Source of the DNA: a virus
Length of the DNA: 54,074 nt
IMG/VR virus record: IMGVR_UViG_3300009783_000001
Reading direction: 5' to 3' (one strand)
Part shown: piece after piece, positions 40,748 to 54,074 of the stretch
Layout of the letters: every line of letters begins with the position of its first letter
How positions within the stretch are numbered: the first letter of the stretch is position 1
Position numbers and translations under genes: made by a program
Notes under the pieces: generated by a model
What the model saw: the letters and a program-made list of their open reading frames with translations, nothing else
Database searches by the model: none
What the model was told of the DNA's origin: nothing

Positions 40748-40764
40748 TCGGTCCCGAGGGAGGG

Positions 40765-42017: not shown

Positions 42018-42039
42018 CTCCGCAATCTTTTGTGAAAGA

Positions 42040-42483: not shown

Positions 42484-42695
42484 CAGTCCTCGAATCGAAT
42501 CATCTGGGCGGAGGCGATCACGATGGCGTCGAAGGCACCGATCCCGATCTCGACGATGTCGTAGTCCTGTTCGGCGAAGTCGTTGAGCACGGCTTCGAGA
42601 CGGGCGGCGAAGGTCTCGTGAGAACCTTCGGTGCCCTTGAGATCCCGGATCACCCGGCGTACTTGGAAGGTGGTCTGCGTGACCTGTGTGGTCAT
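42483..42695 (-). CDS. hypothetical protein (70 aa)
   Basis: ATG 42695 overlaps the upstream TGA. Confidence 0.45.
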   Translation of the reverse strand: MTTQVTQTTFQVRRVIRDLKGTEGSHETFAARLEAVLNDFAEQDYDIVEIGIGAFDAIVIASAQMIRFED

Positions 42696-43030
42696 GATTG
42701 CCCCAGTTCGGAGAGGTCGTCGGGGGCGTGGATGGGTTCGAGGCAGGTGATGGGGTAGGTGATGCCCGTGCGGTACTTGCCCCGGAAGGACGGGCCGTCG
42801 ATGATGTTGCAAACCGCCTTGGTCTGCTTGATCTCGGTCACCTCGACGGTCGCTCCCAGCATGTACTGCGGCCGGCAGTTGACCAGCTTGCAGAGCGAGC
42901 CGACTTCGAGTTCGCCCTTGATGCGGATGGCGGCCTGTCGCCGTCGCAACTTGATCTCGTCGACGATGCGGCGGTTCAGTTTGAGCAAATCCTCGTCGGA
43001 GGCGCTCCGGATGTAATCGCTCATCTTCAT
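42692..43030 (-). CDS. hypothetical protein (112 aa)
   Basis: ATG 43030 preceded by a CAACGAAAGGCAATGCC leader and a promoter. Confidence 0.55.
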   Translation of the reverse strand: MKMSDYIRSASDEDLLKLNRRIVDEIKLRRRQAAIRIKGELEVGSLCKLVNCRPQYMLGATVEVTEIKQTKAVCNIIDGPSFRGKYRTGITYPITCLEPIHAPDDLSELGQS

Positions 43031-43059
43031 GGCATTGCCTTTCGTTGGTTGATAGCACC

Positions 43060-43106
43060 ATTATGCCACAACCGTAGCTCCGCGTCAATAGCCGGTGCGG
43101 ACTTCC
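43060..43106 (-). promoter_or_regulatory. leftward promoter with GGAAGTCCGCACC upstream element
   Basis: Minus strand: GGAAGTCCGCACCGGCTA-TTGACG-N17-CATAAT-ggtg-CTATCAACCAACGAAAGG. Confidence 0.6.
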
Positions 43107-43330
43107 TACCCAGTTGTTCCCAGGTAGAGGCAGAGTGCGATTACTGCGAGAGCGAGAATGGCCGCTCCGAGGATGAAGTCGTGCTGCCGATCGGAGAAGT
43201 AGGGCAGGGTCACGGTCTTGTGACAGGACCAGCACCCGATCTCCCCGACCTCCACATCCTCTTCGTACCCGATGTTCGCTTGACCGCAGTTCGGGCAGTA
43301 AACGGTCCAGGTCGGGTCACCCATACTCAT
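43106..43330 (-). CDS. membrane-anchored zinc-ribbon protein (74 aa)
   Basis: CPNCG...CWSCH followed by the C-terminal TM segment FILGAAILALAVIALCLYL. Confidence 0.5.
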   Translation of the reverse strand: MSMGDPTWTVYCPNCGQANIGYEEDVEVGEIGCWSCHKTVTLPYFSDRQHDFILGAAILALAVIALCLYLGTTG

Positions 43331-43532
43331 CCCCGATCTTCTCCATGCGGTCTACGAGGTCCTCGCCCAGGCAGGGCATTTCCTTCGCTTCTTCCAAGCC
43401 GGCGTTGCAGACGAAGCAGCCGTACTGGATCTGTTCGATGCCCTCGGGGTCGACGACGGGCGAGCCGTCGATCAGAACGATGGGTGTGATGATGATCTGG
43501 GCGAGCTTGTGCTCACCGGTCTGGGGACTCAT
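43317..43532 (-). CDS. hypothetical protein (71 aa)
   Basis: ORF in the operon, overlapping its neighbours by a few codons. Confidence 0.45.
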   Translation of the reverse strand: MSPQTGEHKLAQIIITPIVLIDGSPVVDPEGIEQIQYGCFVCNAGLEEAKEMPCLGEDLVDRMEKIGDEYG

Positions 43533-43644
43533 GGGGCTCCTCGGGTGGTTGGTAGGACGGGTGCTTCTTGCGGGCTTCCTCGTAGATGGCGAGGACTTTC
43601 TGGCGTTGCGCTTCTCTGAAGGCGTCGAGGTCTACCACTTCCAT
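43513..43644 (-). CDS. hypothetical micro-protein (43 aa)
   Basis: MEVVDLDAFREAQRQKVLAIYEEARKK... fills the gap between 43532 and 43632. Weak call. Confidence 0.3.
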   Translation of the reverse strand: MEVVDLDAFREAQRQKVLAIYEEARKKHPSYQPPEEPHESPDR

Positions 43645-44105
43645 AGCGTCGGCCTCGTCCACTTGATCGGAGCGCCGCAGATGTGGCACTGCTTGGACTG
43701 GCCGCAGAGGTAGCTCTTCATGTTGTGGTGTCGCTTGAACCAGGTGAAGGTCGTGACCCTGCGGCAGAAGGGGCACCACCACTCGTTGGGCTTGTTGCCC
43801 GTGCCTTCGGGGAAGTGGACCCCCACCTGGCCTGTTGCCTTGTTCCTGACTCGGGGCATCCGATAGGTCCACCACTTCGAGGCGACTGCCCCGTCGTAGA
43901 AGGTCTTGTCCAGGATCTTGGGCAGGAGGAATTTGAGCGCCTCTTCGTAGGTCTCGAAGTCGACTCGGGCCCAGGGCCCCTTCTTCTTGCGTTGCACGAA
44001 GCATCGCCAGTTCTTGTAGCCCTCCCGCTTGTTCATGCGGGGTGTCTTGAGCATCCAAGCCCGGAAGATGGGGTCCTTGAGCTGCTTCCGCAGCGTCGCC
44101 GTCAT
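43632..44105 (-). CDS. hypothetical zinc-finger protein (157 aa)
   Basis: WWCPFCRR...CGQSKQCHICG cysteine pairs. Confidence 0.55.
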   Translation of the reverse strand: MTATLRKQLKDPIFRAWMLKTPRMNKREGYKNWRCFVQRKKKGPWARVDFETYEEALKFLLPKILDKTFYDGAVASKWWTYRMPRVRNKATGQVGVHFPEGTGNKPNEWWCPFCRRVTTFTWFKRHHNMKSYLCGQSKQCHICGAPIKWTRPTLWKW

Positions 44106-44344
44106 GCGACCTTGGCCAGTCGCCGCTGCTGGCGGGGCGTGAAGACCCCCCGGTGGAGGTGGATGAAGAGGATGCCGGCCAGCTCTCGCTTCGGGGTCCT
44201 CGTCGTCACCTTGATGTGCGGGCAGTCGGTCCTGACCATGTCCCGCAGGGCGGGAGCGGTGAACGAGTCGTAGAACTTCAGACCCGCTTCCACGTCGATA
44301 CCTCGCTGAGCGAGATAGTTGAGCGCCTTCTTGGTGTGGTTCAC
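44102..44344 (-). CDS. hypothetical protein (80 aa), first gene of the leftward operon
   Basis: GTG 44344 preceded by a CGACGAAAGGTAACTCCC leader and a promoter. Confidence 0.5.
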   Translation of the reverse strand: MNHTKKALNYLAQRGIDVEAGLKFYDSFTAPALRDMVRTDCPHIKVTTRTPKRELAGILFIHLHRGVFTPRQQRRLAKVA

Positions 44345-44386
44345 CGGGAGTTACCTTTCGTCGGTGGCAGTTGTGATTGCCAAGTC

Positions 44387-44414
44387 ATCATATCATGCTC
44401 GTGCGATGGGTCAA
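44387..44414 (-). promoter_or_regulatory. leftward early promoter
   Basis: Minus strand: TTGACC (44414-44409), 16 nt, TATGAT (44392-44387). Confidence 0.55.
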
Positions 44415-44440
44415 AATGCGAGTGCATGGATCGTTCTCGG

Positions 44441-44467
44441 CTCAACTATGCCCCCACCGTAGTTGAG
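44441..44467. repeat. CTCAACTA-N11-TAGTTGAG hairpin in the divergent promoter region
   Basis: 8-bp inverted repeat between the two divergent promoters. Same family as 14082-14108. Confidence 0.6.
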
Positions 44468-44486
44468 TGGAACCGGTACGAGTGAT

Positions 44487-44515
44487 TTGACTCCACTTTC
44501 CCGTCATGATAAGGT
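44487..44515 (+). promoter_or_regulatory. rightward early promoter (primase operon)
   Basis: TTGACT (44487-44492), 17 nt, TAAGGT (44510-44515). Confidence 0.55.
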
Positions 44516-44547
44516 GATCTCACCTCAAACCACGAATGGAGTGATGC

Positions 44548-44772
44548 ATGACCGACGAGGATACGCACATGAGGACTTCGATGACCCAGGAGGACTGGGA
44601 CGAGTTTGCCCGGGCAATCCAGGGGTTCATCGACGGGGCTCAAACCTTCGCCGCTGTTCTGCTCAAGTTCCAGGACGATCTCCCCCTCACCACCGAGCAG
44701 CGCACGCAGGTTCAGAACTTGAGGGGTCGAGGCAGGAAGCCCGCACCGATCTGGGGTGACGGACCGCAGTGA
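44548..44772 (+). CDS. hypothetical protein (74 aa)
   Basis: First ORF after the promoter. Its stop overlaps the GTG of the primase gene. Confidence 0.5.
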   Translation: MTDEDTHMRTSMTQEDWDEFARAIQGFIDGAQTFAAVLLKFQDDLPLTTEQRTQVQNLRGRGRKPAPIWGDGPQ

Positions 44773-46823
44773 AGGCTGAGCAACAACTCTCAATCATCAG
44801 CAAGGCGTGGGGGAGGCAGTCCGGTTACTGCTTCTTCCCATGGATCGGGGGTGACGCCAAGGATCGCTCGGAGCGCATCAACTCGTACCACGAAGGTCCA
44901 CCTTTCCTCTGGCCGGAGGACAAGGCGAAGATCATCAAACACATGGAGGACCACACCCATGACGACCTCTACTGGTGCCCCTCACTCTTCGAGAAGAAGG
45001 CCCGACGCCTCGACTTCGCCATGGACGAACATGCTCTCTGGGCTGACCTCGATGAAGTCGATCCTCGAGAAGTTCCTGACGAGTACCGCCCCACCATCGC
45101 TTGGGAGTCCTCGCCTGGGCGGTACCAGGCTCTCTGGCTCGTTTCCGGTGGTGACATTCAGGGTGCCTCTTGGCCCGGTGGTGAGAATCAACGACTCACC
45201 TACCATCTGGGTGCAGATGTCGGAGGCTGGGATACCACCCAACTTCTGCGTATCCCAGGCTGGGACAATCACAAGCCCCATTACCGAGAGGCAAATGGTG
45301 GGAAGCCTCAGCGGGGCAAGCTCCTTTGGAGTACCGGCCGTCGGTACCTTGCGGATGAGTTCACCGACCTCCCTGAGGTTGCCGCCGCCGGGGTCGCTCA
45401 GAACATCGTCGAGGAAGAGATCGACCGGATCGACCGACATGAGGTGTGGGGGCGAGTCCGACTCAAGGTGAGCAAGAGGGTTCGGGAGCTCATCTCCAGC
45501 CGTGAAGTATCCGGCGACCGCAGCGATGCGCTCTGGGAGATCGAACGCGAACTCGCCGACGCGGGGTGCACGGTTACCGAGATCGTCGCCATCGCCCGAG
45601 CCACCGTCTGGAACAAGTTCTCGGGCCGCCAGGATGAGCTCCGCCGCCTCATCAGCGAGGCCAGTAAGGCCTACGAGGCCCGCTCCGAAGAGACGGTCGA
45701 GAAGATCGAGAAGGAGCTCGAGCACAAGCCCCCGCCCCAGCGCATCATGACCCTCCTCGCCAACGTCAAACCGCCGAAGTGGCTGGTCGAGGGCATCTGG
45801 GCAGAGGGCTCCTGCGGGTTCATCGCTGGGCAACCCAAGTCCTACAAGTCCTGGTGTGGCCTCGACCTCGGGCTCAGCATCGCCAGCGGTACCGACTTCC
45901 TCAACCAGTTCAAGGTCATCAACCCCGGGCCCGTCCTCTACATCCAGGAGGAGGACCCGGCGCCGGTGCTCAAGAACCGCTTCGAGAAGGTCTGGCCGGG
46001 GAAGCAGTCCGACCGCATGGAGATGGTCGACGGGGAGATGATCTGGACACCTCGCCAGGACGTTGCCCCTGACCCCGACCTCATGGCCTACGTTGGCGAG
46101 GGGTTCACGATTTCCGACACCGGGTGGCAGAGCTGGCTCGAGGGTACCCTCGACGACGGGCTCGATGGTGAGGGATACCGCATGGTCGTGATCGACCCGC
46201 TGATGATGGTTGCCGGCGATGTCGATGAGCACCGTGCACAGGAGATGACTGAGAAGATCTTCAAACCGCTCAAGCAACTGTCGCGTAAGCACAACGTCGC
46301 CATCTGCATCATCCACCACATGCGGAAGGGGAACGACACCAAGGGCAACACTGTCCGAGGCGGGCAGCGCATGCTGGGAAGCGTTGCCAACCATGCCTGG
46401 ACAGAAGATGCGCTCTATCTCTCCCTTGCCACACGCGACGTGATCGTCGAACGCGAATCCAAGCACTCGCCCTCAGGCAGCTTCAGGATCGGTCGGGTTC
46501 GCAATCGTGAGTGGATGCCCATCATCACAAACCTCGACCTGGGAATCGACGATGACGAGGAAACCTCCGTGGTCAACCAACCCACTGGGGCCACACCAAG
46601 GGACATTCCGCCCGGCGAGGATCGACCCCCAGGGAGGAAGTCTGGTCAGGGCAAGGCCATCCAGCTCGTACTCCAGGGCGGTGACTCCCGAACCACCAAG
46701 GACATCGCCATCGAGGTCGATATGTCAGTGAGCGGGGTCTCCAAGCAGCTCCGCAGGGCAGAAGCACAGGGCATCGTCCGGCACACCAGCCGAGGCTGGA
46801 TCCCCGGAGCAAAAGCCAAGTGA
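44769..46823 (+). CDS. primase (prim-pol/RepB'-like) fused to RepA/DnaB-type RecA-fold helicase, with C-terminal wHTH
   Basis: N-domain LWADLDEVD and ESSPGRYQALW. Walker A GQPKSYKSW, LYIQEEDP, VVIDPL, IIHHMRKG. C-terminus TTKDIAIEVDMSVSGVSKQLRRAEAQGIV. Confidence 0.8.
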   Translation: MKAEQQLSIISKAWGRQSGYCFFPWIGGDAKDRSERINSYHEGPPFLWPEDKAKIIKHMEDHTHDDLYWCPSLFEKKARRLDFAMDEHALWADLDEVDPREVPDEYRPTIAWESSPGRYQALWLVSGGDIQGASWPGGENQRLTYHLGADVGGWDTTQLLRIPGWDNHKPHYREANGGKPQRGKLLWSTGRRYLADEFTDLPEVAAAGVAQNIVEEEIDRIDRHEVWGRVRLKVSKRVRELISSREVSGDRSDALWEIERELADAGCTVTEIVAIARATVWNKFSGRQDELRRLISEASKAYEARSEETVEKIEKELEHKPPPQRIMTLLANVKPPKWLVEGIWAEGSCGFIAGQPKSYKSWCGLDLGLSIASGTDFLNQFKVINPGPVLYIQEEDPAPVLKNRFEKVWPGKQSDRMEMVDGEMIWTPRQDVAPDPDLMAYVGEGFTISDTGWQSWLEGTLDDGLDGEGYRMVVIDPLMMVAGDVDEHRAQEMTEKIFKPLKQLSRKHNVAICIIHHMRKGNDTKGNTVRGGQRMLGSVANHAWTEDALYLSLATRDVIVERESKHSPSGSFRIGRVRNREWMPIITNLDLGIDDDEETSVVNQPTGATPRDIPPGEDRPPGRKSGQGKAIQLVLQGGDSRTTKDIAIEVDMSVSGVSKQLRRAEAQGIVRHTSRGWIPGAKAK

Positions 46824-46992
46824 GCGCCCGACGACATGACGGGTTGGGTGTGGTGGAGTGCTCACATCTTTTCGCAACGGGAACGAGTCATCGACTCAAC
46901 CTTCTCGTCGGGCGGCCGGTGGGGGTATGCTCCACTATCAAACTTTCGACGTGGTCTCACACGCAGTCACCTATCGGGTCGCAGATGCGGTA

Positions 46993-47039
46993 TGATGATA
47001 AGGGGATATATACCCTAAGGGGTATATCCCCAATCATCA
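46993..47039. repeat. 47-bp imperfect palindrome with AT-rich core
   Basis: TGATGATAAGGGGATATATACC-ctaagg-GGTATATCCCCAATCATCA. The left arm starts inside a TATGAT hexamer. Confidence 0.7.
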
Positions 47040-47112
47040 CCACTGCAGATGATGACCTGGGGAACTCACATATCCACCTAACCGAACAACAAATAGGAAG
47101 AAGGAACAGGGC

Positions 47113-47517
47113 ATGGGTCTTGAACATCCCGAGGCACGCAAACACATTCCACCGGATGATGGAATGAAGTACCTGATGGATGCGACGAAGCACCAGGGGC
47201 TTCACTACTCGACGCTCACTTCCGGAGGTCCCGACTTCATGGAGTTTGGGGTCAAGCGCCATGGGGGTTGGGCGATGATCCTCGAGCCCGGTCTCGCCAG
47301 TGACTACCTGGCGACCATCGTCAACCTGCCCCAGAGCTGGAACGAGGGCAGGGGCGAGTACGACTACGCCAACATCTTCTTCGGCTTGGACAATGGGTGC
47401 CGAGCTGGAGGTCTCTACGGCCTTCGGGCGAAGGTCTACGCCAACGGGCAGAAGATCGCTGAGTATGGGGACTGGGATGGCGAACGGGAACCATGGACCG
47501 AAGCGGAGGGAGAATAG
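47113..47517 (+). CDS. hypothetical protein (134 aa)
   Basis: ATG 47113 with a GGAAGAAGGAA RBS. Confidence 0.5.
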   Translation: MGLEHPEARKHIPPDDGMKYLMDATKHQGLHYSTLTSGGPDFMEFGVKRHGGWAMILEPGLASDYLATIVNLPQSWNEGRGEYDYANIFFGLDNGCRAGGLYGLRAKVYANGQKIAEYGDWDGEREPWTEAEGE

Positions 47518-47519
47518 AC

Positions 47520-48194
47520 ATGGGGCGACAGACTGGTGATGGGCTGAGGTTCGAGGACCAGGTCGAGCGGGAGGTACGCAAACGACTAGCGGAGACCATG
47601 AGTAGTGCCGGAGTCAACCAAGGGAGGATCTCCATGGAGGTTCTCTACTGGCTGCCAGAGAACTTCGCTCGGCTCTACATGCAGATGGTGGACAAGGCCC
47701 TGAAGATGGATGATGGGGTTGGGAGCTCCATGGGCGGACAGACGGGTGATGAGGGGCAGATCAAGGCGAAGGTCGGGACAGGACCACAGAGGGGCAAGCA
47801 GGCGGGAGGGTTGTTCACTCGTGAGAGCGGGGCTCATGCAAGGGGCACGGGCAAGAGGTACCGAGTTCACTGGCTGGTGAAGGATGAGAACGCCTTCGCT
47901 CTCAAGGGCAAGATTGACCGGAAGCTCGGGGAACTCGCTCACCTCATCGCTCAAGGTGGAGGCGGGAAGATGGGTTCTGAGAAGAAGGTCGATGGGCGAA
48001 CCCCCCTCTCCCCTGGTGGGGATGCTGTTGCGGAGCGAGGCGAAACTCATGGAGTTGATCTGGGGGACCGCACGCTGAAGGTGCTGGGGGCTGGGAGACT
48101 GCAATGCAAGGGATGCGGGAAGATGGCCTCGAAGGGTTGGGTCATTTGCCCTCGTCCGCACAACCAGGGAAAGGACCAGGAACATGCAGGTTGA
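47520..48194 (+). CDS. hypothetical protein (224 aa) with C-terminal CxxC...C
   Basis: ATG 47520. Internal repeat MG(R/G)QTGD(G/E). C-terminus LQCKGCGKMASKGWVICP. Confidence 0.5.
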   Translation: MGRQTGDGLRFEDQVEREVRKRLAETMSSAGVNQGRISMEVLYWLPENFARLYMQMVDKALKMDDGVGSSMGGQTGDEGQIKAKVGTGPQRGKQAGGLFTRESGAHARGTGKRYRVHWLVKDENAFALKGKIDRKLGELAHLIAQGGGGKMGSEKKVDGRTPLSPGGDAVAERGETHGVDLGDRTLKVLGAGRLQCKGCGKMASKGWVICPRPHNQGKDQEHAG

Positions 48195-48411
48195 TCGAGA
48201 TGGCAACTACATGAAGGACGAAGGCGCTTACGGTGCTGATCCGAAGTCCGAGGTTGAGAAGGTGGACGAGGAAGTGCTGCGCCAGCAGGTGTGGGAAGCA
48301 CTTGGGGAACTGAGTGACGATGAGTTGAGGGTGCTGTACGGGCTTGAGGTGACTCGTGAGGTACTGGTGGGGATGATTGTTCATGCGATCTCACATGCGG
48401 ATGGTGCGTGA
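48184..48411 (+). CDS. hypothetical acidic protein (75 aa)
   Basis: ORF overlapping the upstream stop. ALGELSDDELRVLYGLE is faintly like sigma region 4 (not claimed). Confidence 0.4.
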   Translation: MQVDRDGNYMKDEGAYGADPKSEVEKVDEEVLRQQVWEALGELSDDELRVLYGLEVTREVLVGMIVHAISHADGA

Positions 48412-48508
48412 TGCGGTGATGGGTAGTAACGAGGATCGGGGACGGTTGCGAAATCAGGCAAACCTCGAGTGGTGTCACAATGCCAACGGGATCTCGGTTT
48501 CGGACGAG

Positions 48509-48590
48509 ATGTGACTCTCCGTGTGTCGTGTCTAGCATCAGAGCTGCTGGGGTTTCGGCCCAGCTCGTTCCGGACTCTCGTTTGATCTCA
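48509..48590. repeat. ATCAGAGCTGC element, copy 2
   Basis: gtgtcgtgTCTAGc-ATCAGAGCTGC(48537-48547)-tggggtttcggCCCAGCTCGTTCC. Confidence 0.55.
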
Positions 48591-48671
48591 AAACACATGG
48601 AAAGTACCGGAAAAGCATGAGACTACACGAGCACGGGAGCCGGACGGGAGAACTCCCACCGCCCTGGTCGG

Positions 48672-48687
48672 TGTGACGTGTGTCACA
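48672..48687. promoter_or_regulatory. TGTGA-N6-TCACA palindrome (CRP/GlxR-type operator-like site)
   Basis: TGTGACGTGTGTCACA, perfect. Confidence 0.6.
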
Positions 48688-48898
48688 AAATCGCTTGCGC
48701 CCTACCCCTGGTGTTCTCCCAGAGCCCCGTACGTGGTGTCCTAAGAGCGTTCCGTCGAAGCGCTAATAGGGTCAACCCCTGGGGCACGTACGAGGAGCGC
48801 TCGGACGCTTCTGTGCCGAACTCATGGAGAGAATCCCATGGAGATAATCTTGGCACAACCCGTGCCAAAAAGAAATCGACTTTGTTTGAACAAAAGCC

Positions 48899-48927
48899 TT
48901 GACGGGGTTTGAACCAGTGCCTAAGAT
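48899..48927 (+). promoter_or_regulatory. sigma70-like promoter of HTH paralogue 48988
   Basis: TTGAACAAAAGCC-TTGACG (48899-48904), 17 nt, TAAGAT (48922-48927). The leader contains ATCAACCAACG and CAACGAAAGGAAACCCC. Confidence 0.6.
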
Positions 48928-48987
48928 TATCCCATCAACCAACGCGCCGCATCACGATGATCGACGCAACGAAAGGAAACCCCAAAC

Positions 48988-49227
48988 ATGGCTCAGATCA
49001 CCGCCAAGGAACTGGCTGTCGCTTGCGACACCGACCCCCGCACCGTCCGGAAGTTCCTCCGTTCGCACATGGAGGACACCCCCGGGAAGGGCTCCCGCTA
49101 CGCCATCGAGAAGCGACAGGTCAAGTCGCTGGTCAAGGCATTCAACGCCTGGGATGAGGCCCGGAAGCCGGCTGCGACCGACGAGGTCGAGGTCGACGAG
49201 GTCGAGGTCGAGGTCGAAACCGACTGA
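48988..49227 (+). CDS. HTH (excisionase/MerR-like) protein with acidic tail, paralogue A
   Basis: ITAKELAVACDTDPRTVRKFLRS...GKGSRYAIEKRQVKSLVKAFNAW, plus tail DEVEVDEVEVEVETD. Confidence 0.7.
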   Translation: MAQITAKELAVACDTDPRTVRKFLRSHMEDTPGKGSRYAIEKRQVKSLVKAFNAWDEARKPAATDEVEVDEVEVEVETD

Positions 49228-49238
49228 CACCCGAACCA

Positions 49239-49286
49239 GCACCCCTCCCAACCCCCTCCCCCGGGAGGGGTGCTCGGTGTGTTCTG
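49239..49286 (+). terminator. intrinsic terminator
   Basis: GCACCCCTCCC-N13-GGGAGGGGTGC followed by TCGGTGTGTTCTG. Confidence 0.6.
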
Positions 49287-49300
49287 TCAAGGTTTTTCTG

Positions 49301-49316
49301 TGTGACGTGTGTCACG
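49301..49316. promoter_or_regulatory. TGTGA-N6-TCAC palindrome (CRP/GlxR-type site)
   Basis: TGTGACGTGTGTCACG. Starts copy 3 of the ATCAGAGCTGC element (49301-49385, core 49322-49332). Confidence 0.55.
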
Positions 49317-49400
49317 TCTAGATCAGAGCTGCCAGACTTCGCCGCCAACTCGTTCCCGTCCGCCCTGCGGGTTAGTTTGTTCGTGAACGCACAAGCACAA

Positions 49401-49416
49401 TGTGACACAGGTCACA
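49401..49416. promoter_or_regulatory. TGTGA-N6-TCACA palindrome (CRP/GlxR-type site)
   Basis: TGTGACACAGGTCACA, perfect. Exactly 100 nt after the previous site. Confidence 0.6.
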
Positions 49417-49496
49417 TCTCGCACCCTTGATAGGCGGGTGTCCCTTGCGTTGATGTCATCTTATCATCCGCGGGGTACCCCGTCAAGGAATTTCTT

Positions 49497-49512
49497 TGTG
49501 ACCTGTGTCACA
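49497..49512. promoter_or_regulatory. TGTGA-N6-TCACA palindrome (CRP/GlxR-type site)
   Basis: TGTGACCTGTGTCACA, perfect. Preceded by GTCAAGGAATTTCTT, as the 49301 site is by GTCAAGGTTTTTCTG. Confidence 0.6.
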
Positions 49513-49836
49513 AATTTGCCGATGCGCCGATGGCAGAATGCTCTCATTGCCCCGTAGGAGGCGTCCTAAGCGCGTGCCACGCATAGCGCCCCTGTTAGGG
49601 GGATTAGGAGCAGGCGTCGAAGCGCTCTCACGCCCTCCTAGGGGCAATCACGGGCGTTGCCACCTAAGGAGATATCAACAGGCAAGATGGGTGATGGGTG
49701 CGCAGCATGCCTCGACCGCCTTAGGGACGCTTCTAGGGGGCAATGCGGCGAAGTCGCTCGAGTCATCCTTATCGCACGACGCGCACGCGAGTACCACACC
49801 TCGCCGCCGATGTCAAGGAATTGCTCGCCGAATCGC

Positions 49837-49852
49837 TGTGAACTTTGTCACC
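49837..49852. promoter_or_regulatory. TGTGA-N6-TCAC site upstream of promoter 49874
   Basis: TGTGAACTTTGTCACC, 22 nt upstream of the -35. Confidence 0.5.
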
Positions 49853-49873
49853 CCGATTTCTTGAACAAATGCC

Positions 49874-49902
49874 TTGACCAATGCCTTGCATCATGCGATG
49901 AT
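49874..49902 (+). promoter_or_regulatory. sigma70-like promoter of HTH paralogue 49957
   Basis: TTGAACAAATGCC-TTGACC (49874-49879), 17 nt, GATGAT (49897-49902). The leader contains ATCAACCGA and CAACGAAAGGAAAACCCC. Confidence 0.55.
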
Positions 49903-49956
49903 CTTCATATCAACCGATCGCAACCGATGCGATCGCAACGAAAGGAAAACCCCATC

Positions 49957-50187
49957 ATGGCAACGCTCACGATCAAGGAAACCGCGCTCGAGATCGGCAC
50001 CGATCCCCGCACGCTTCGCAAGTTCCTGCGCAGCGACGCATCCCCGATCGCTCCGGTCGGGAAGGGTGCTCGATACGCGATCGAGCGCAAGGCGCTGAGG
50101 GGGGTTAAGGCGAAGTTCGCCGCCTGGGATGCCGCTCGCACCCCCGCCACCCCCGAACCCGCTGACGACGCGCCTGACGCGAACTGA
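49957..50187 (+). CDS. HTH (excisionase/MerR-like) protein with acidic tail, paralogue B
   Basis: LTIKETALEIGTDPRTLRKFLRSDASPIAPVGKGARYAIERKALRGVKAKFAAW, plus an acidic/Pro tail. Confidence 0.7.
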   Translation: MATLTIKETALEIGTDPRTLRKFLRSDASPIAPVGKGARYAIERKALRGVKAKFAAWDAARTPATPEPADDAPDAN

Positions 50188-50198
50188 CGCGATGCTGA

Positions 50199-50232
50199 TC
50201 CCCGCCTTCGGGCGGGGGTCAGTTGTGTGTTG
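50199..50232 (+). terminator. intrinsic terminator
   Basis: CCCCGCC-ttcg-GGCGGGG followed by GTCAGTTGTGTGTTG. Confidence 0.65.
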
Positions 50233-50354
50233 CAACTGACTCGGCGAAGCATGAAATGCCATGAGGATCCACTCGGCGATTCGGCGCCGCCCGATCGCTG
50301 GTTTGGCACCACGGGGCGTGAGTCGCGTCCTAAGGCGGTGCCACCCCCTCGCTC

Positions 50355-50366
50355 AATGCTAGCATT
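50355..50366. repeat. AATGCTAGCATT 12-bp palindrome, copy 1
   Basis: Context CTCAATGCTAGCATTC. Confidence 0.7.
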
Positions 50367-50410
50367 CTGGGCATCCGGTCCCCGCGGCGGTTCGGCGTCG
50401 AGGTGCCCGA

Positions 50411-50430
50411 GTAGTTGAAGTTTCAACTAC
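50411..50430. repeat. GTAGTTGAA-gt-TTCAACTAC hairpin just upstream of a -35
   Basis: 9-bp inverted repeat, related to the TAGTTGAG/CTCAACTA hairpins. Confidence 0.55.
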
Positions 50431-50439
50431 ATTTCCTCC

Positions 50440-50468
50440 TTGACTTTCCACACCACCCATGCGATGAT
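50440..50468 (+). promoter_or_regulatory. promoter of leaderless ORF 50475
   Basis: TTGACT, 17 nt, GATGAT, then exactly 6 nt to the ATG. Confidence 0.55.
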
Positions 50469-50474
50469 CTTCCC

Positions 50475-50672
50475 ATGACCCACCTGATGAACTCCCTCTC
50501 GCTCGCTGCGCATCTCACGCTCGAGAACGATCGCACCTGCCCCGCTTGCGGGGAATACCTCGATTCGGGGATGGGATTCGATCGACGCGACTTCGAATGC
50601 ACGGAATGCGACTTCTTCACTGACTACCCCGCCGAACTCGCCCTCGCCTTCTTCCGCCTCGACTTTCCCTGA
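50475..50672 (+). CDS. Cys-rich micro-protein, paralogue 1 (65 aa)
   Basis: LSLAAHLTLENDRTCPACGEYLDSGMGFDRRDFECTEC. Paralogous to 51106-51324. Confidence 0.55.
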   Translation: MTHLMNSLSLAAHLTLENDRTCPACGEYLDSGMGFDRRDFECTECDFFTDYPAELALAFFRLDFP

Positions 50673-50677
50673 TTCTT

Positions 50678-50708
50678 CCCCCTCATGCCTTGACACCGCA
50701 TGAGGGGG
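50678..50708 (+). terminator. 11-bp perfect hairpin whose loop is the -35 of the next promoter
   Basis: CCCCCTCATGC-cTTGACAcc-GCATGAGGGGG. Confidence 0.55.
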
Positions 50709-50718
50709 ATGATATGAT
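50690..50718 (+). promoter_or_regulatory. promoter of leaderless ORF 50725
   Basis: TTGACA, 17 nt, TATGAT, then exactly 6 nt to the ATG. Confidence 0.6.
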
Positions 50719-50724
50719 TGCTGC

Positions 50725-51021
50725 ATGAACCACACCGACATCATCAACTTCATCTCGATCGACAACGACGATGCTTGCAACGCCGACGATCGCTACGCCT
50801 TCATGATCGACTACCTGATCGACCCACGCGACACTCGCTACCTGCTCTCCGACTTCGATTCGATCCACCCCGCCCTCACGACGATCGCCGACATGATCGA
50901 CGAACTCGATGCCGACGAAACGCGCCGCCTGCTCGAATCATACGAACTCTGCCCGATCCACCGATGCGACGATGCGATCTGCGCCGATGACGCCAACCCC
51001 GAATGCGCCCACCTGCGCTGA
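50725..51021 (+). CDS. acidic Cys-containing hypothetical protein (98 aa)
   Basis: Leaderless-type ORF. ...ELCPIHRCDDAICADDANPECAHLR. Confidence 0.55.
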   Translation: MNHTDIINFISIDNDDACNADDRYAFMIDYLIDPRDTRYLLSDFDSIHPALTTIADMIDELDADETRRLLESYELCPIHRCDDAICADDANPECAHLR

Positions 51022-51032
51022 TCTGATCCGCC

Positions 51033-51057
51033 CCCCATGCGATGCGACCGCATGGGG
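51033..51057 (+). terminator. hairpin after 50725-51021
   Basis: CCCCATGCG-atgcgac-CGCATGGGG. Confidence 0.5.
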
Positions 51058-51071
51058 TGACGGATGTCACA
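51056..51071. promoter_or_regulatory. GTGA-N6-TCACA site abutting the -35 of promoter 51072
   Basis: GGTGACGGATGTCACA, immediately followed by TTGACA. Confidence 0.5.
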
Positions 51072-51099
51072 TTGACAAACCGCCCCGCCATGATAGGAT
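51072..51099 (+). promoter_or_regulatory. promoter of leaderless ORF 51106
   Basis: TTGACA, 16 nt, TAGGAT, then exactly 6 nt to the ATG. Confidence 0.6.
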
Positions 51100-51105
51100 G
51101 GATGC

Positions 51106-51324
51106 ATGAACCAAATCACAACGCTCCTCTTCCTCGCCGCCCTCTGCACGCTCGAACGCGACCGCCAATGCCCCGAATGCCCGCACGGGGAACTCGACTC
51201 GGGGATGGGATTCGGACGCCGCGATCTCGAATGCTGCGGATTCGATGAGGATGATGAGGATGAGGATTGCGGATTCGCGATCTCCTACTCCATCACGCTC
51301 TACCTCGATCTCATCGCCGCCTGA
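51106..51324 (+). CDS. Cys-rich micro-protein, paralogue 2 (72 aa)
   Basis: LFLAALCTLERDRQCPECPHGELDSGMGFGRRDLECCGFDEDDEDEDCG. Confidence 0.55.
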   Translation: MNQITTLLFLAALCTLERDRQCPECPHGELDSGMGFGRRDLECCGFDEDDEDEDCGFAISYSITLYLDLIAA

Positions 51325-51334
51325 TCCCGCCCGC

Positions 51335-51365
51335 TGCGCCGCCCTCCGGGGCGGTGCTTCGGCGT
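51335..51365 (+). terminator. intrinsic terminator-like hairpin
   Basis: GCGCCGCCC-tcc-GGGGCGGTGC followed by TTCGGCGTG. Confidence 0.5.
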
Positions 51366-51409
51366 GAGAGGGGCGCAGGAGCGTCGTAGCGGCGGTGTGG
51401 GGGCAGACA

Positions 51410-51425
51410 GGAATGCTAGCATTCC
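51410..51425. repeat. GGAATGCTAGCATTCC 16-bp perfect palindrome (AATGCTAGCATT copy 2)
   Basis: Core at 51412-51423. Confidence 0.7.
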
Positions 51426-51587
51426 CGGCGTAAAACAGCGTCAAAGAGCTCTAGTTTGGTCCGTGAAGAGATTCTCCGCCTAAGGAGATGCGAGGGCAGT
51501 GCCCGCAGGGTCGCCCCACTATGGGGGTCAACTCGCTTAGGACGCTTCTGACGCGATCTGACGCCACACGCCACCAGAAGGAAATGG

Positions 51588-51617
51588 TTGACAAGCGATC
51601 GCCCGCATTGGCAGGAT
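51588..51617 (+). promoter_or_regulatory. promoter of leaderless ORF 51624
   Basis: TTGACA, 18 nt, CAGGAT, then exactly 6 nt to the ATG. Confidence 0.5.
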
Positions 51618-51623
51618 CTGCCC

Positions 51624-51758
51624 ATGACCCGCACACGCAACCTCATCGCCGCATCCGCCCTCGCCCTCGCCGTCGCCCTGACCGCGTGCCAACCCGCTCC
51701 GCCCATCGAGTCGTGCGACCCGCTCCCCGGCATGCCCTGCACTCCCGAGCACCCCTGA
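51624..51758 (+). CDS. tiny predicted lipoprotein (44 aa)
   Basis: MTRTRNLIAASALALAVALTAC: basic n-region, hydrophobic core and an L-T-A-C lipobox. The mature part is 23 aa with 3 Cys. Confidence 0.5.
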   Translation: MTRTRNLIAASALALAVALTACQPAPPIESCDPLPGMPCTPEHP

Positions 51759-51763
51759 CCGGG

Positions 51764-51779
51764 TGTGCCGAACGTCACA
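51764..51779. promoter_or_regulatory. TGTG-N7-TCACA near-site upstream of promoter 51791
   Basis: TGTGCCGAACGTCACA. Confidence 0.4.
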
Positions 51780-51790
51780 GAAGAAAGTCC

Positions 51791-51818
51791 TTGACATCGT
51801 GCCCGAGTCATATAGGAT
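51791..51818 (+). promoter_or_regulatory. promoter of leaderless ORF 51825
   Basis: GAAGAAAGTCC-TTGACA, 16 nt, TAGGAT, then exactly 6 nt to the ATG. Confidence 0.6.
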
Positions 51819-51824
51819 GACTGC

Positions 51825-51947
51825 ATGAACCGCACCGACGAACACACCAACCACGACCACGGCCTTTGCGAGGGATGCGGCGAGGAGACCTGCCTCGCCA
51901 AGGATTCCGACCTCTGCCTCGCCTGCGCCTACGACCCGGAGTACTGA
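51825..51947 (+). CDS. Cys-rich micro-protein (40 aa)
   Basis: MNRTDEHTNHDHGLCEGCGEETCLAKDSDLCLAC. Below the ORF-track cutoff. Confidence 0.4.
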   Translation: MNRTDEHTNHDHGLCEGCGEETCLAKDSDLCLACAYDPEY

Positions 51948-51949
51948 TC

Positions 51950-52117
51950 ATGAACCACATCGACACCCACGACGAAGAACTCGCCGACTGCCCGACCCAC
52001 GGCGACGACCAGGTGGTCACCGCCATCCACACGGGGCCGGGGTTCTGCACTCCGATGACCCTGCTCACCCTCGCCTGCGGTTGCCAACAGGTCGAGGGCG
52101 ACCACATCGAGGACTGA
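51950..52117 (+). CDS. Cys-containing micro-protein (55 aa)
   Basis: MNHIDTHDEELADCPTHGDD...LACGCQQ. Starts 2 nt after the previous stop. Confidence 0.45.
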   Translation: MNHIDTHDEELADCPTHGDDQVVTAIHTGPGFCTPMTLLTLACGCQQVEGDHIED

Positions 52118-52123
52118 ACCTTC

Positions 52124-52156
52124 CCGCCGCCGCCCTCCGGGGCGGTGGTTTGGTGT
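52124..52156 (+). terminator. intrinsic terminator
   Basis: CCGCCGCCC-tcc-GGGGCGGTGG followed by TTTGGTGT. Confidence 0.6.
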
Positions 52157-52262
52157 CGACCTTCGTGGAGTCGGAAGTTCAGGTCGTAGGTGTGGGACCT
52201 CAAGTTAGGTTCTCGTAGGGAGCCCGTAGGAGTCGACGAGAGGGCCGCTCGCCCAATCACTC

Positions 52263-52274
52263 AATGCTAGCATT
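52263..52274. repeat. AATGCTAGCATT palindrome, copy 3
   Basis: Context CTCAATGCTAGCATTC, identical to the copy 1 context. Confidence 0.7.
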
Positions 52275-52373
52275 CCTGACATGATAGGGAGTCGTTAGGA
52301 CACTCCTCAGGATGACTGATCGCATCACGTCGATCGTCGATGACCGATCGCCGACCTCCTGGGAAGAAAGTCC

Positions 52374-52402
52374 TTTACTTGTGCCCTGAGGTAAGGTACT
52401 AT
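52374..52402 (+). promoter_or_regulatory. promoter of leaderless ORF 52409
   Basis: GAAGAAAGTCC-TTTACT, 17 nt, TACTAT, then exactly 6 nt to the ATG. Confidence 0.5.
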
Positions 52403-52408
52403 ACCTAC

Positions 52409-52684
52409 ATGCCCTCCACCACCCACTTCAACTGCCCCACCTGCGATCGGCTCGGGCCTGCCGGTCGGGATCGCGAACAGGAACTCAAGAACCTCCGGGC
52501 ACGCCTCCGCAGGGTCTACCGCAACTACAACCCGACTCCTGATGAGGGAATCGGAACCAAGGCCTGGTCCGACCACATGAAGAAGGTTCGCCCGATCTTC
52601 GACTCCATGGATGACTACAAGTCCATGCTGACCATCGACCGCCAGGCCCTGAAGGATCACCTCCAGGAAGGTGTGGGAGGCTGA
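52409..52684 (+). CDS. hypothetical protein with N-terminal CPTC (91 aa)
   Basis: MPSTTHFNCPTCDRLGPAGRDREQELKNLRARLRRV... Confidence 0.5.
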   Translation: MPSTTHFNCPTCDRLGPAGRDREQELKNLRARLRRVYRNYNPTPDEGIGTKAWSDHMKKVRPIFDSMDDYKSMLTIDRQALKDHLQEGVGG

Positions 52685-52696
52685 CCCTGCCGAGGA

Positions 52697-52712
52697 AGTG
52701 ACCAACGTCACA
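52697..52712. promoter_or_regulatory. GTGA-N6-TCACA site
   Basis: AGTGACCAACGTCACA. Confidence 0.45.
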
Positions 52713-52892
52713 TAAGTATTCTTGGTGTATAGGGCAGGGGGAGCCTATATGCCGGGTATGGGCCCCCTACCTCCCTGCTCCTACCACGAAGATTTTTGGG
52801 AGGGTTTTTCCAAACCTATGGAGAAAGGCCTGAGTAGACCGCCCTGGATAGGTCCCTAGGATGGCCTCAGAATCGCCCCCATATGGGCGCCC

Positions 52893-52904
52893 TATGCTAG
52901 CATT
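52893..52904. repeat. ATGCTAGCAT palindrome, copy 4
   Basis: TATGCTAGCATT; 10-bp perfect core at 52894-52903. Confidence 0.6.
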
Positions 52905-52946
52905 GAGGGCACAGAGGGAGGGCTCTAGGCATTGCTCAGGCTCTAG

Positions 52947-53232
52947 AGGTAGGTAAGTGGGCAGGCATCAGCAGTAGGTAGTAGTAGGTAGGTGGGTAGG
53001 TAGGATGGGTAGGTAGTAGGTACCTCAGAGGTAGGCATATGGGTAGGTATAGGCAGGGGGCAGGTATAGGTAGGTATGTGGGTATGGGTACCAGGTGGGT
53101 AGGTGGGTAGTATTCTGGTAGGGATATCAGCATCCTGATCGTGGTAGGTGGGAGGTGAGTAGTAGTAGGATAGAGGAGGGCATTGCCTTCCTTCATTGGT
53201 AGGTAAGAGAGGAGGGTGGGGGATGGGGGTAT
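52947..53232 (+). repeat. C-depleted GGTAGG/GGGTAGGT repeat block
   Basis: At least 12 GGTAGG copies. Hand count gives 24 C in 286 nt, with C-free runs of 50, 40 and 38 nt. Bounded by GGTAGGTAAG at both ends (52948 and 53198). Confidence 0.85.
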
Positions 53233-53534
53233 CCCTAACTGCTCCAGTGTCCGCTCCGTCCTCCGTTGGTAGGATGAGAGCAGTAGGTCCCGGGTCTGTG
53301 ACGAACAACAAACAACGAACCACGACGACGAAGGCTGAACCCCCCCGGGTCATATGGTGTACGTGTTGTAGTAACGACCGTCCTCTACTCCGCCTGCGAA
53401 CTTCTGGCTCTTTTCCAAATCTTTGCTACCACGTCACACCATGCACAGGGCGATATGCCCTCACCGTCGATAGCCGTACAAACCCCGTACGACTAAACCA
53501 CACTATCACGGGCAGATCGAATAGAGCGTTCTCC

Positions 53535-53563
53535 TTGCCTAGAAAGAACCCATGCGATAGAGT
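53535..53563 (+). promoter_or_regulatory. sigma70-like promoter at the head of the late operon
   Basis: TTGCCT (53535-53540), 17 nt, TAGAGT (53558-53563). AAAGGAG RBS before ATG 53591. Confidence 0.5.
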
Positions 53564-53590
53564 CTAGGCTCACCGACAAAGGAGTACAGC

Positions 53591-53980
53591 ATGCTGCTGT
53601 CCTACGACCACTGCCTCGACCTCGCCATCCGGGGACCCTGGGGCTCCGAACCCCCGACCACGAAGGAGATCACCGACCGAGCCGACGCGTACTTCAAGGC
53701 TCAGGGCCAGGTCAAGCCTGGGGACCTGAAGCCCATCTCGGACGCCCTCGGCATCGACACCGGCGAGATCCCGCCCGGCCCCGATGTCATCGACGTGGTC
53801 CTCGCCCGGATCGCCGAGATCAAGGAGCGGCTGCAGGGGCGGAACGGCGACAACGCCATCCTCAACTCCGAGGTGGCCGAGCTCACCCGGAAGCTGAGCA
53901 AGACCGAGCTCCGCCTCATCGACCTGACTGCGTGCTTGTGCCCGAAGTTCGCCCGCGCTGACCGAGGGGACCGGGCATGA
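53591..53980 (+). CDS. hypothetical protein (129 aa), first gene of the late operon
   Basis: ATG with an AAAGGAG RBS. Its 3' end runs into the terminal repeat and is ATGA-coupled to the ORF annotated at 26-235. Confidence 0.55.
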   Translation: MLLSYDHCLDLAIRGPWGSEPPTTKEITDRADAYFKAQGQVKPGDLKPISDALGIDTGEIPPGPDVIDVVLARIAEIKERLQGRNGDNAILNSEVAELTRKLSKTELRLIDLTACLCPKFARADRGDRA

Positions 53981-54074
53981 GCGCCGCAGACCGCACCATC
54001 CAGCCGATGCGCGAGCGTCCGGGCCGACCTGTCGCCTCCGGCTTCACGCTGCTGCCGCCCGCCGAGCAAGAACG
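53952..54074. repeat. terminal direct repeat, right copy (identical to 1-123)
   Basis: Same 123-nt string as 1-123. Could be an assembly overlap of a circular or circularly permuted genome, or a true DTR. Confidence 0.95.

Follow-up and report, generated by a model that had tools for sequence, protein, structure and literature searches.

A cluster of small-gene mini-operons in an actinophage genome as a probable long terminal repeat collapsed by assembly

The virus record IMGVR_UViG_3300009783_000001, a DNA stretch of 54,074 nt analyzed here over its full length and referred to as the window, carries to the right of its primase operon an array of eight short transcription units separated by long noncoding spacers. 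We consider it probable that this region is the long direct terminal repeat (DTR) of the phage, bearing an immediate-early module of the host-takeover type, and that the two copies were collapsed by assembly. The collapsed DTR is most likely about 4.8 kb long, extending from ~48.6 kb to ~53,387, and its single appearance would follow from assembly of the linear genome as a circle. The initial annotation had ended the array at 52940, about 450 nt short of the end of the feature near 53390, and had not recognized it as a described system, whereas its position and its homologous genes match the DTRs of three cultured phages, and analogues are known from SPO1, T5, and T4.

Evidence for a collapsed terminal repeat

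The first 123 nt of the window (1-123) were identical to the last 123 nt (53952-54074). Thus, the window is a circularly closed assembly of ~53,951 nonredundant nucleotides rather than a genome with mapped ends, namely, an actinophage genome assembled as a circle. Protein comparisons revealed synteny with Curtobacterium phage Shrew (PQ868981) over the whole genome length, with identities of 63% for TerL, 41% for the portal protein, 47% for DNA polymerase, and 54% for the primase-helicase. The next-closest cultured relatives were the Microbacterium phages Huwbert (OR521080) and Triscuit (MH047631). Near-identity DNA searches with the region and the replication block returned no match among 50,697 phage records, and a primase-based scan of IMG/VR produced no confirmed relative; a primase search yielded more than 1,000 relatives at E values of up to 1e-50, many of them on contigs of 53 to 60 kb. 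For the comparison of spacers and cassettes, we used as closer relatives five contigs (L012 to L016) in which the helix-turn-helix (HTH) protein of the first unit, HTH1, was 84 to 87% identical, and as distant relatives L008 and L009, the primases of which were 70% identical. The contigs with 94% and 74% identical primases end short of the region. A 60.6-kb contig with an HTH homologue contained a single copy and hence offered no direct view of the repeat.

The sequence records of Shrew and Huwbert were verified to contain exact terminal repeats, 4512 and 3811 bp long, respectively, and a DTR has been reported for Triscuit (PMC7302621). Homologues of HTH1 and of its paralogue HTH2 were found inside the DTRs of both Shrew and Huwbert, and a weak homologue of A98, the acidic protein of the fourth unit, is Huwbert gp7, which lies within the Huwbert DTR. 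By synteny and shared genes, the region is therefore positionally homologous to the DTRs of the cultured relatives. In the Shrew and Huwbert DNA examined, TGAACCCCCCC occurred once per repeat copy and started 51 nt before the right end of the DTR in both phages. The same motif is unique in the window, at 53336, and the 51-nt offset places the right border at ~53387. The sequences beyond the border agree as well: CTACCACGTCAC was found 40 nt past the Shrew border and 39 nt past the predicted border of the window, and the post-border block of Huwbert (GCGAAC..CTCT..CCAAA..TGCTACCACGT) aligned to window positions 53396-53434. A 60-nt block at the right border was identical to that of L012. The two predicted borders are as follows.

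53336-53437, plus strand: right border signals, with TGAACCCCCCCGGGTC at 53336-53351, the border at ~53375-53390, then TTCTGGCTCT and CTACCACGTCAC (53426-53437)
48590-48650, unstranded: predicted left border, with weak similarity (GTTTGATCTC, GGACGGGA) to the flanks of the left DTR border of Shrew; low precision

The region could instead be an internal hyperplastic early-gene region of a genome that ends elsewhere or is circularly permuted, which would leave the cassettes and their turnover unchanged. The poorly defined left border speaks for this reading, as do contigs from other samples that cross both predicted borders uninterrupted, but a collapsed repeat would be assembled straight through too. 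Moreover, the window shares its 63% identical TerL with a phage that has defined DTR ends, the -51 motif and the post-border motifs occupy the same offsets in two cultured phages, and the homologous HTH and A98 genes lie within cultured DTRs. We therefore judge an internal location improbable.

Just inside the right border, positions 52945-53260 form a tract containing only 10% C, the lowest content in the genome, with GTAGG and GGGTAGG repeats on the plus strand. Equivalent C-poor tracts were present in Shrew (3990-4150, 9% C), in L012, and in L009 (17250-17560, 7% C, followed by TCAACCCCCCCGGGTC); the tracts of other lineages occupied the same position inside the right border and differed in sequence (TATAGGGGGT, GGATAGG). 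The order of C-poor tract, motif, and border was kept in Shrew, L012, and L009. The plus-strand frequency of TAGG rose from 0.58 per kb in the main genome to 4.0 per kb in 48412-52684 and 27.6 per kb in 52685-53590. A spurious ORF (open reading frame) of 136 aa runs through the tract on the minus strand.

Repeat-rich DNA of this kind, chiefly the GTAGG tract at 52945-53260, might also serve as a replication origin, its iterons being bound by an initiator such as the RepB-type primase-helicase. The region holds 22 of the 35 plus-strand GTAGG sites in the window, 17 of the 35 being within the tract, which is extreme in its strand asymmetry; the primase-helicase has a RepB_primase domain; and in Shrew a very AT-rich stretch comes after the tract, as in origins that combine iterons with an unwinding element. 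However, no AT-rich unwinding element was found beside the tract of the window, no DnaA boxes were found in the region, and the cumulative GC skew made no clear turn at the tract. In four lineages the tract has a fixed position just inside the border, which suits a terminus-linked role no less well, and we regard an origin at this site as very unlikely.

Mini-operons and cassette turnover

Between the stop codon of the primase operon (48411) and the next ordinary gene (53591), nine small plus-strand ORFs are arranged in eight units, followed by the first unit past the repeat.

48899-49273, plus strand: unit 1, with promoter TTGACG-17-TAAGAT (48899-48927), a leader of ~55 nt with GAAAGGAAA, HTH1 (48988-49227, 79 aa), and terminator hairpin 49239-49273
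49874-50223, plus strand: unit 2, with promoter 49874-49902, a leader with GAAAGGAAA, HTH2 (49957-50187, 76 aa), and terminator 50194-50223
from 50440, plus strand: unit 3, with promoter 50440-50468, CPxC protein C65 (50475-50672, predicted leaderless), and hairpin 50677-50709
to 51057, plus strand: unit 4, with promoter 50690-50718, acidic protein A98 (50725-51021, predicted leaderless; D+E 24 versus K+R 7), and hairpin 51033-51057
51056-51357, plus strand: unit 5, with palindrome 51056-51071, promoter 51072-51099, CPxC protein C72 (51106-51324, predicted leaderless; C65 paralogue), and terminator 51336-51357
from 51588, plus strand: unit 6, with promoter 51588-51617 and a 44-aa lipoprotein (51624-51758, predicted leaderless; lipobox LTAC)
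to 52149, plus strand: unit 7, with promoter 51791-51818, C40 (51825-51947, predicted leaderless), C55 (51950-52117, second ORF of the unit, after C40), and terminator 52126-52149
52374-52712, plus strand: unit 8, with promoter TTTACT-17-TACTAT (52374-52402), C91 (52409-52684, 91 aa, predicted leaderless), and a palindrome or weak hairpin 52697-52712
53535-53980, plus strand: first unit past the repeat, with promoter TTGCCT-17-TAGAGT (53535-53563) and a 129-aa ORF (53591-53980) led by a Shine-Dalgarno sequence

In Shrew and Huwbert, a promoter likewise lies 80 to 105 nt past the end of the DTR. All nine small ORFs of the initial annotation exist, and gene calling on two further assemblies with identical DNA recovered the same set. 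The high noncoding share that it had reported was borne out too: the ORFs fill 1887 of the 5179 nt in 48412-53590, leaving ~64% noncoding, compared with 11.6% in the 9.4 kb upstream (38988-48411, from the gene table).

A strict promoter scan, requiring a TTGnnn element with at least 5 of 6 matches to TTGACA, a spacer of 16 to 18 nt, and a TAnnnT-like -10 element, identified 7 distinct plus-strand sigma-70-type promoters in 48412-53590 and 14 in the whole 54 kb, which corresponds to ~1.35 versus 0.14 per kb, an approximately tenfold difference. A second scan of the region found 7 promoters where 2.3 were expected. Each unit had been said to possess its own TTGAC-type promoter, and this held for the seven strict matches; the eighth, located ahead of C91, is slightly weaker and begins with TTTACT. 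At six promoters, an ATG follows the -10 element by 6 to 7 nt (ORFs at 50475, 50725, 51106, 51624, 51825, and 52409), which predicts leaderless mRNAs for six units. Leaders with the GAAAGGAAA ribosome-binding site precede HTH1 and HTH2 only. The phage evidently uses host-type promoters outside the repeat too, given a divergent promoter pair at 44380-44520, between the leftward gene block and the primase operon (minus strand, TTGACC-16-TATGAT at 44414; plus strand, TTGACT-17-TAAGGT at 44487).

Downstream of HTH1, HTH2, C65, A98, C72, and C55 stand GC hairpins (-25 to -37 kcal/mol) that have G/T-rich tails. The proposal of a GC-stem terminator in every unit was upheld for these six units; C91 is followed by a palindrome or weak hairpin. 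Hairpins 50677-50709, 51033-51057, and 52126-52149 directly precede or overlap the next promoter, and the -35 element of the unit 4 promoter sits in the loop of the first of these. The promoter-plus-start regions have 28-nt blocks in common, at 71 to 86% identity, whereas the terminators and spacer cores are mostly unique. The promoter and leader of unit 1 are conserved in relatives.

Two pairs of paralogues recognized earlier were confirmed, HTH1 and HTH2 being 52% identical (E value, 4e-19) and the CPxC proteins C65 and C72 being 61% identical (E value, 4e-12). HTH1 and HTH2 matched phrog_21603 with E values of 1.7e-17 and 5.9e-12, respectively; a PDB sequence search with the HTH profile returned nothing meaningful. 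An AlphaFold (AF2) model built from 39 sequences reached a predicted local distance difference test score (pLDDT) of 77 and was closest to the MerR-type winged-helix domains of RacA, GlnR, CadR, BldC, Xis, and pSK1 Par (template modeling [TM] scores of 0.48 to 0.57 at E values of at least 0.02). The model is suggestive, but only suggestive, of MerR-like winged-helix DNA binders of the type that coats repeat arrays (RacA, BldC, Xis, and pSK1 Par).

When all small proteins were clustered, the HTH family alone was common to all relatives examined; its members are likely regulators. HTH2 orthologues were present in every relative. Two HTH copies stood in tandem in every genome examined except that of Shrew, which has one in its repeat; thus, the HTH duplication is old. 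In bacterial genomes, the HTH relatives that a scan recovered were all distant and came from metagenome-assembled genomes of Actinomycetota, so that no host could be assigned; a tRNA search found none. The C-terminal part of a 285-aa leftward protein (41160-42017, minus strand) is a third HTH paralogue, 54% identical to HTH2. Its orthologue is Shrew gp90, annotated as a DNA binding protein, which makes the 285-aa protein a further candidate binder of the spacer motifs.

Cargo proteins other than the HTH pair had no informative Pfam or PHROG matches, and most were singletons in the clustering. A98 had only three database relatives, and its AF2 model, with a pLDDT of 57, was unusable. By analogy with the modules discussed below, a role of the cargo in host takeover or antidefense is plausible.

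The order of the spacers was the same in L012 to L016, at 67 to 90% identity, and the ORFs between these in-place spacers had been gained, lost, or replaced even though HTH1 was 84 to 87% identical. At 50378-50384, L012, L013, L014, and L015 had insertions of 237 to 625 nt, each opening with a promoter and closing with an intact terminator; two, one, and two ORFs were called in those of L012, L013, and L014, respectively. Spacer S2 of the window retains just the 3' half of the insertion terminator, a remnant of a deleted cassette. L013 was 99.2% identical to the window over 50384-51030 and 84 to 90% identical on either side, indicative of a recent exchange. These comparisons support the view, put forward in the initial annotation, of a diversifying island of independently promoted small genes.

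Four-fold degenerate sites compared with L010 and L012 to L015 were 46 to 71% identical in the primase operon (44769-48411) and 77 to 100% identical in genes of the repeat region (48988-51021). Together with the 99.2% identity of L013, this contrast indicates that exchange among lineages is more recent for the repeat region than for the replication genes. Beside its primase gene, the 94% identical relative L010 carries an extra 119-aa ORF (1236-1595) with a weak LAGLIDADG match. The window lacks this ORF, possibly a homing endonuclease insertion.

Noncoding spacers and their conserved elements

The spacers, designated S0 to S5, had been described as closed in all six frames, but their stop-free runs of 49 to 160 codons were no different from those in shuffled sequence. 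Protein coding was nevertheless rejected on other grounds: substitutions relative to relatives lacked 3-nt periodicity (P values of 0.11 to 0.99), and indels were mostly not multiples of 3. A tblastn search of the spacers for remnants of known cassette proteins found none. The spacers are truly noncoding, and in this respect the earlier interpretation stood. Extended spacer-to-spacer homology was limited to S0 and S1 and exists because the HTH unit was duplicated; the other spacers have in common only short words in varying order and orientation. Cassette duplication, previously deduced from related spacers in general, thus applies to the HTH unit and the CPxC pair and not to the remaining spacers. 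Their principal elements are listed below.

48531-48590, plus strand: module B, TAGCATCAGAGCTGC..CTCGTTCC..GTTTGATCTC, at the end of the primase operon and just left of the predicted left border
48672-48687, unstranded: 16-bp palindrome TGTGACGTGTGTCACA, the first of eight; the others are at 49301, 49401, 49497, 49837, 51056, 51764, and 52697
49317-49512, unstranded: left half of S1, with a second copy of module B (B', 49317-49372), hairpin island 49417-49450, minus-strand promoter 49486-49458, and palindromes at 49401 and 49497
49531-49745, unstranded: S1 core, with AATGCTCTCATT, CCCGTAGGAG-GCGTCCTAAG, and the inverted copy CTTAGGGACGCTTCTAGGGGGCAATG ~150 nt away
50325-50430, unstranded: S2, with GCGTCCTAAG-N21-AATGCTAGCATT (50325-50366), a terminator remnant and indel hot spot (50378-50399), and palindrome GTAGTTGAAGTTTCAACTAC (50411-50430)
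51412-51553, unstranded: S3 words, with GGAATGCTAGCATTCC (51410-51425), CCTAAGGAGAT (~51476), and CTTAGGACGCTTCT (51536-51549)
52184-52375, unstranded: S4 core, with three CGTAGG copies, AATGCTAGCATT (52263-52274), TTAGGACAC, and the near-palindrome CGATCGTCGATGACCGATCG
52893-53260, plus strand: S5, with TATGCTAGCATTGAG (52893-52907) and the C-poor GTAGG/GGG tract (52945-53260)

Several words proved nearly confined to the region, among them AATGCTAGCATT, GTCCTAA, and TGTGA-N6-TCACA, the last of which the initial annotation had listed as shared by the spacers. ATGCTAGCAT and GCGTCCTAAG occurred four and three times in the region, respectively, and not once in the other 48 kb, and all five copies of GTCCTAA/TTAGGAC fell within the region. 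With up to one mismatch, TGTGA-N6-TCACA had nine matches in the window, eight of them in the region, where 1.4 were expected. Several region-specific palindromes and repeats fit the multifactor control suggested at the outset.

TGTGA-N6-TCACA is the operator consensus of the CRP/FNR family (GlxR and Crp). Besides the eight sites with at most one mismatch, the resemblance extends to the palindrome of unit 5 (51056-51071), which abuts the -35 element of the C72 promoter; its center lies ~42.5 nt upstream of the predicted start, near -41.5 and the class II position. Unlike known operators of this family, the sites are confined to one phage clade and mostly do not lie at canonical promoter distances. 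The TGTGAC-N4-GTCACA form is clade specific: L014 has as many as nine copies, and comparable arrays are missing from L008, L009, Shrew, and Huwbert; the palindrome at 48672 was invariant in six relatives. A stretch of ~135 nt in L014 (2783-2918, corresponding to ~49301-49420) contains five copies, four of them contiguous, whereas the matching stretch of the window has two. The operator-like array thus varies in copy number among close relatives. A phage regulator is at least as likely as host Crp or GlxR to bind these palindromes.

Three features persisted in the distant relatives L008 and L009, namely, module B, the hairpin island, and the minus-strand promoter. Module B was 91% identical to that of L009, and its core was invariant in eight aligned copies; a form of it, TAGATCAGAGCTGC-N20-CGTTCC, stands ahead of HTH1 and again after HTH1. 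A third copy (39050-39100, TAGAATCAGAGCTGC..CAGCT..GTGCTTCC) lies where the rightward replication operon ends against the leftward gene block. All three copies lie past the 3' ends of plus-strand units, and module B is a candidate terminator-like element, processing site, or protein site. The hairpin island (TCTCGCACCC..GGGTG) was conserved in L012, L009, and L008. Between the two HTH genes, a minus-strand promoter unaccompanied by a conserved ORF was kept in four lineages (the window, L012, L009, and L008); it reads TTGACG-17-TAAGAT in the window (49486-49458) and TTGACA-17-TATGAT in L009. In relatives, the promoter and island are found at ~14864-14960 (L009) and ~15130-15230 (L008). The promoter would give rise to a leftward RNA of ~170 to 200 nt that is antisense to module B'.

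Conservation across genera was also seen for CTCAATGCTAGC, which extended to Shrew, to L008, and to an IMG/VR relative. The opposite strand of this word reads TGCTAGCAT (TGnTAnnnT), the extended -10 consensus and the core of AATGCTAGCATT, and the word could therefore be a promoter lacking a -35 element. An IMG/VR scan for CTCAATGCTAGCWWTC gave 28 matches, and an HTH homologue was found in L032 only. S3 was kept in L014 beside a different upstream gene, and the S4 core was 79 to 81% identical in L012, L014, and L015 despite different flanking genes, with a block of ~35 nt nearly invariant. Ahead of the HTH1 promoter, a 13-nt sequence, C(A/G)TGGAGA(G/T)AATC, is repeated in tandem (48823-48849), with two copies in the window and three in five relatives; next comes a hairpin, TTGGCAC-AACCC-GTGCCAA (48850-48868), that is invariant.

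These elements raise the question of whether the spacers are genes for small noncoding RNAs, transcribed from the extended -10 promoters (TGCTAGCAT) and from the minus-strand promoter in S1. The S1 RNA, antisense to B', could then pair with module B at 39056 and 48537. Conservation of the minus-strand promoter, as TTGAC(A/G)-17-TA..(A/G)T, in the four lineages with the hairpin island just downstream argues for this, as do the cross-genus conservation of CTCAATGCTAGC with TGnTAnnnT on its other strand and the presence of two to three copies of module B per genome, conserved in sequence rather than in structure. However, Rfam gave no match for the region even at E values of up to 1, and folding z-scores of S2 to S5 were unremarkable (-2.5 to +2.5), with only the terminators and the S1 core standing out. 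An alifold and covariation test of the S1 core, of low power with three distinct lineages only, detected no compensatory changes and many broken pairs; in relatives in which the core is invariant, covariation was not assessable. The putative leftward RNAs have no clear terminator, and the shared words vary in order and orientation, as protein sites would. Such RNA genes would be compatible with a terminal repeat, but we think them unlikely. G-quadruplex motifs were not enriched, with one canonical motif in the C-poor tract.

Outside these islands, the spacers appear to evolve freely. Four-fold degenerate sites of neighboring genes were 77 to 92% identical to those of relatives, and spacer identity (67 to 86%) was no higher; most of the spacer length therefore shows no sign of extra constraint, and the constrained parts are islands. 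Accordingly, most of it could be the neutral remains of repeatedly lost cassettes (terminators, promoters, and untranslated regions left as orphans) with few functional sites, and the terminator half left in S2 from a cassette still present in four relatives is an example. Debris does not readily explain the persistence of long spacers in all lineages, L008, L009, Shrew, and Huwbert among them, or why region-specific words occur far above chance, some of them conserved across genera, and the tblastn search disclosed no protein remnants. As a full account of the spacers this explanation is doubtful, although in part it is true.

Proposed mechanism and relation to known modules

If the region is a terminal repeat, it would be the first DNA to enter the cell, left end first, by analogy with T5, T7, and SPO1, and the rightward orientation of all its genes would fit this. 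After injection, host sigma-A RNA polymerase would start at the eight near-consensus promoters, and six leaderless transcripts with ATG at +1 could be translated immediately without a ribosome-binding site. The GC hairpins would insulate the units, permitting the gain and loss of single cassettes by recombination in the promoters, terminators, and spacers that they have in common. Regulation would likely fall to the two MerR-like HTH proteins, binding the region-specific palindromes. The untranslated 0.7 kb at the right end, with the C-poor TAGG tract and AACCCCCCCGGGTC 51 nt from the end, would most likely help to form or package the termini and might also control DNA entry.

A more elaborate scheme can be envisaged that we consider quite unlikely. 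Here, the conserved noncoding parts would be cis-acting DNA or RNA signals of a sort new to actinophages: the C-poor tract and AACCCCCCCGGGTC would form a terminase-recognition or DNA-entry pause element like the injection stop signal of T5; arrays of AATGCTAGCATT, GTCCTAAG, CGTAGG, and TGTGAC-N4-GTCACA would be coated by the two MerR-like proteins, yielding a nucleoprotein scaffold for the timing and insulation of each mini-operon; and the leftward S1 RNA would pair with module B where the replication and primase operons reach their 3' ends.

Several observations weigh against the terminal-repeat module as we picture it. The physical ends of this genome are predictions on a circular assembly, the cultured anchors are distant (primases 47 to 54% identical), and the left border shows similarities of just 8 to 10 nt to Shrew and none that is convincing to Huwbert. 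The early timing, binding partners, and cargo functions were likewise inferred. The Pfam HTH_17 match is weak (E value of 0.002 for HTH2) and its score of 18.8 bits is under the cut-off of 27, and the fold matches of the HTH model are below significance (E values of at least 0.02; TM, ~0.56). L008, L009, Shrew, and Huwbert keep the HTH genes yet lack the palindromes, which makes the pairing of HTH proteins with palindromes a guess. The absence of excess spacer identity over four-fold sites belongs here as well.

The general kind of module is already known from SPO1, T5, and T4 and provides an ordinary explanation for a striking architecture. True homologues are the DTRs of Shrew, Huwbert, and Triscuit, in which small ORFs are separated by gaps of 250 to 1100 nt within 3.8 to 4.5 kb and TGAACCCCCCC stands at -51; Shrew also has the C-poor repeat tract and CTCAATGCTAGC. 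They differ from the window in genome size (68 kb versus 54 kb), in lacking the TGTGAC-N4-GTCACA palindromes, and in that most of the cargo is unrelated; in Huwbert, the HTH genes face leftward. The genome paper does not cover the regulatory anatomy of these DTRs (PMC7302621). The large, motif-filled noncoding spacers had not been analyzed before.

In the host-takeover module of SPO1, a virulent phage, small early genes cluster in the terminal region of the genome as many short operons, each driven by a strong host-type promoter of its own (PMC6873191). The window resembles it in its cluster of small genes with individual host-type promoters (eight promoters and nine ORFs, with an inferred location in the repeat), but there is no sequence homology, the SPO1 host is a Firmicute, and strong ribosome-binding sites take the place of leaderless starts. 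SPO1 is densely coding as opposed to ~64% noncoding, and several of its gene functions are known. The left terminal repeat of T5 comprises pre-early genes and a large untranslated region of repeats, inverted repeats, and palindromes (bioRxiv 10.1101/866236); the window similarly combines a probable long DTR with small genes and a repeat-rich untranslated region toward the inner end of the repeat, but neither DnaA boxes nor A1/A2 homologues were found, and there is no sequence similarity. In T4-type phages, promoter early stem-loop (PeSL) cassettes, composed of a stem-loop terminator and an early promoter, mediate indels in hyperplastic regions (PMC4122927, PMC2839356). Composites of terminator hairpins and promoters likewise bound small variable ORFs here, and indels between close relatives map to them. 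PeSLs, however, are short, and their mutual similarity drives exchange, whereas in the window unique spacer cores of 190 to 700 nt keep their position and the promoter and terminator copies are only loosely alike. What sets the region apart from the SPO1, T5, and PeSL systems is leaderless expression, a very high noncoding fraction, its particular set of words, and the lack of DnaA boxes.

A collapsed terminal repeat may be all that lies behind a striking change of architecture in a circularly assembled phage contig, and annotation of such contigs calls for corresponding caution. For this metagenome-abundant phage group, our analysis provides a testable map with predicted genome ends, eight predicted +1 sites, and candidate operator words, and the -51 motif could help to predict the true ends of circularly assembled metagenomic relatives. 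As the home of the fastest-changing ORFans, the majority of them lacking detectable relatives, the terminal-repeat module is a natural place to seek host-takeover and antidefense proteins of Actinomycetota phages.

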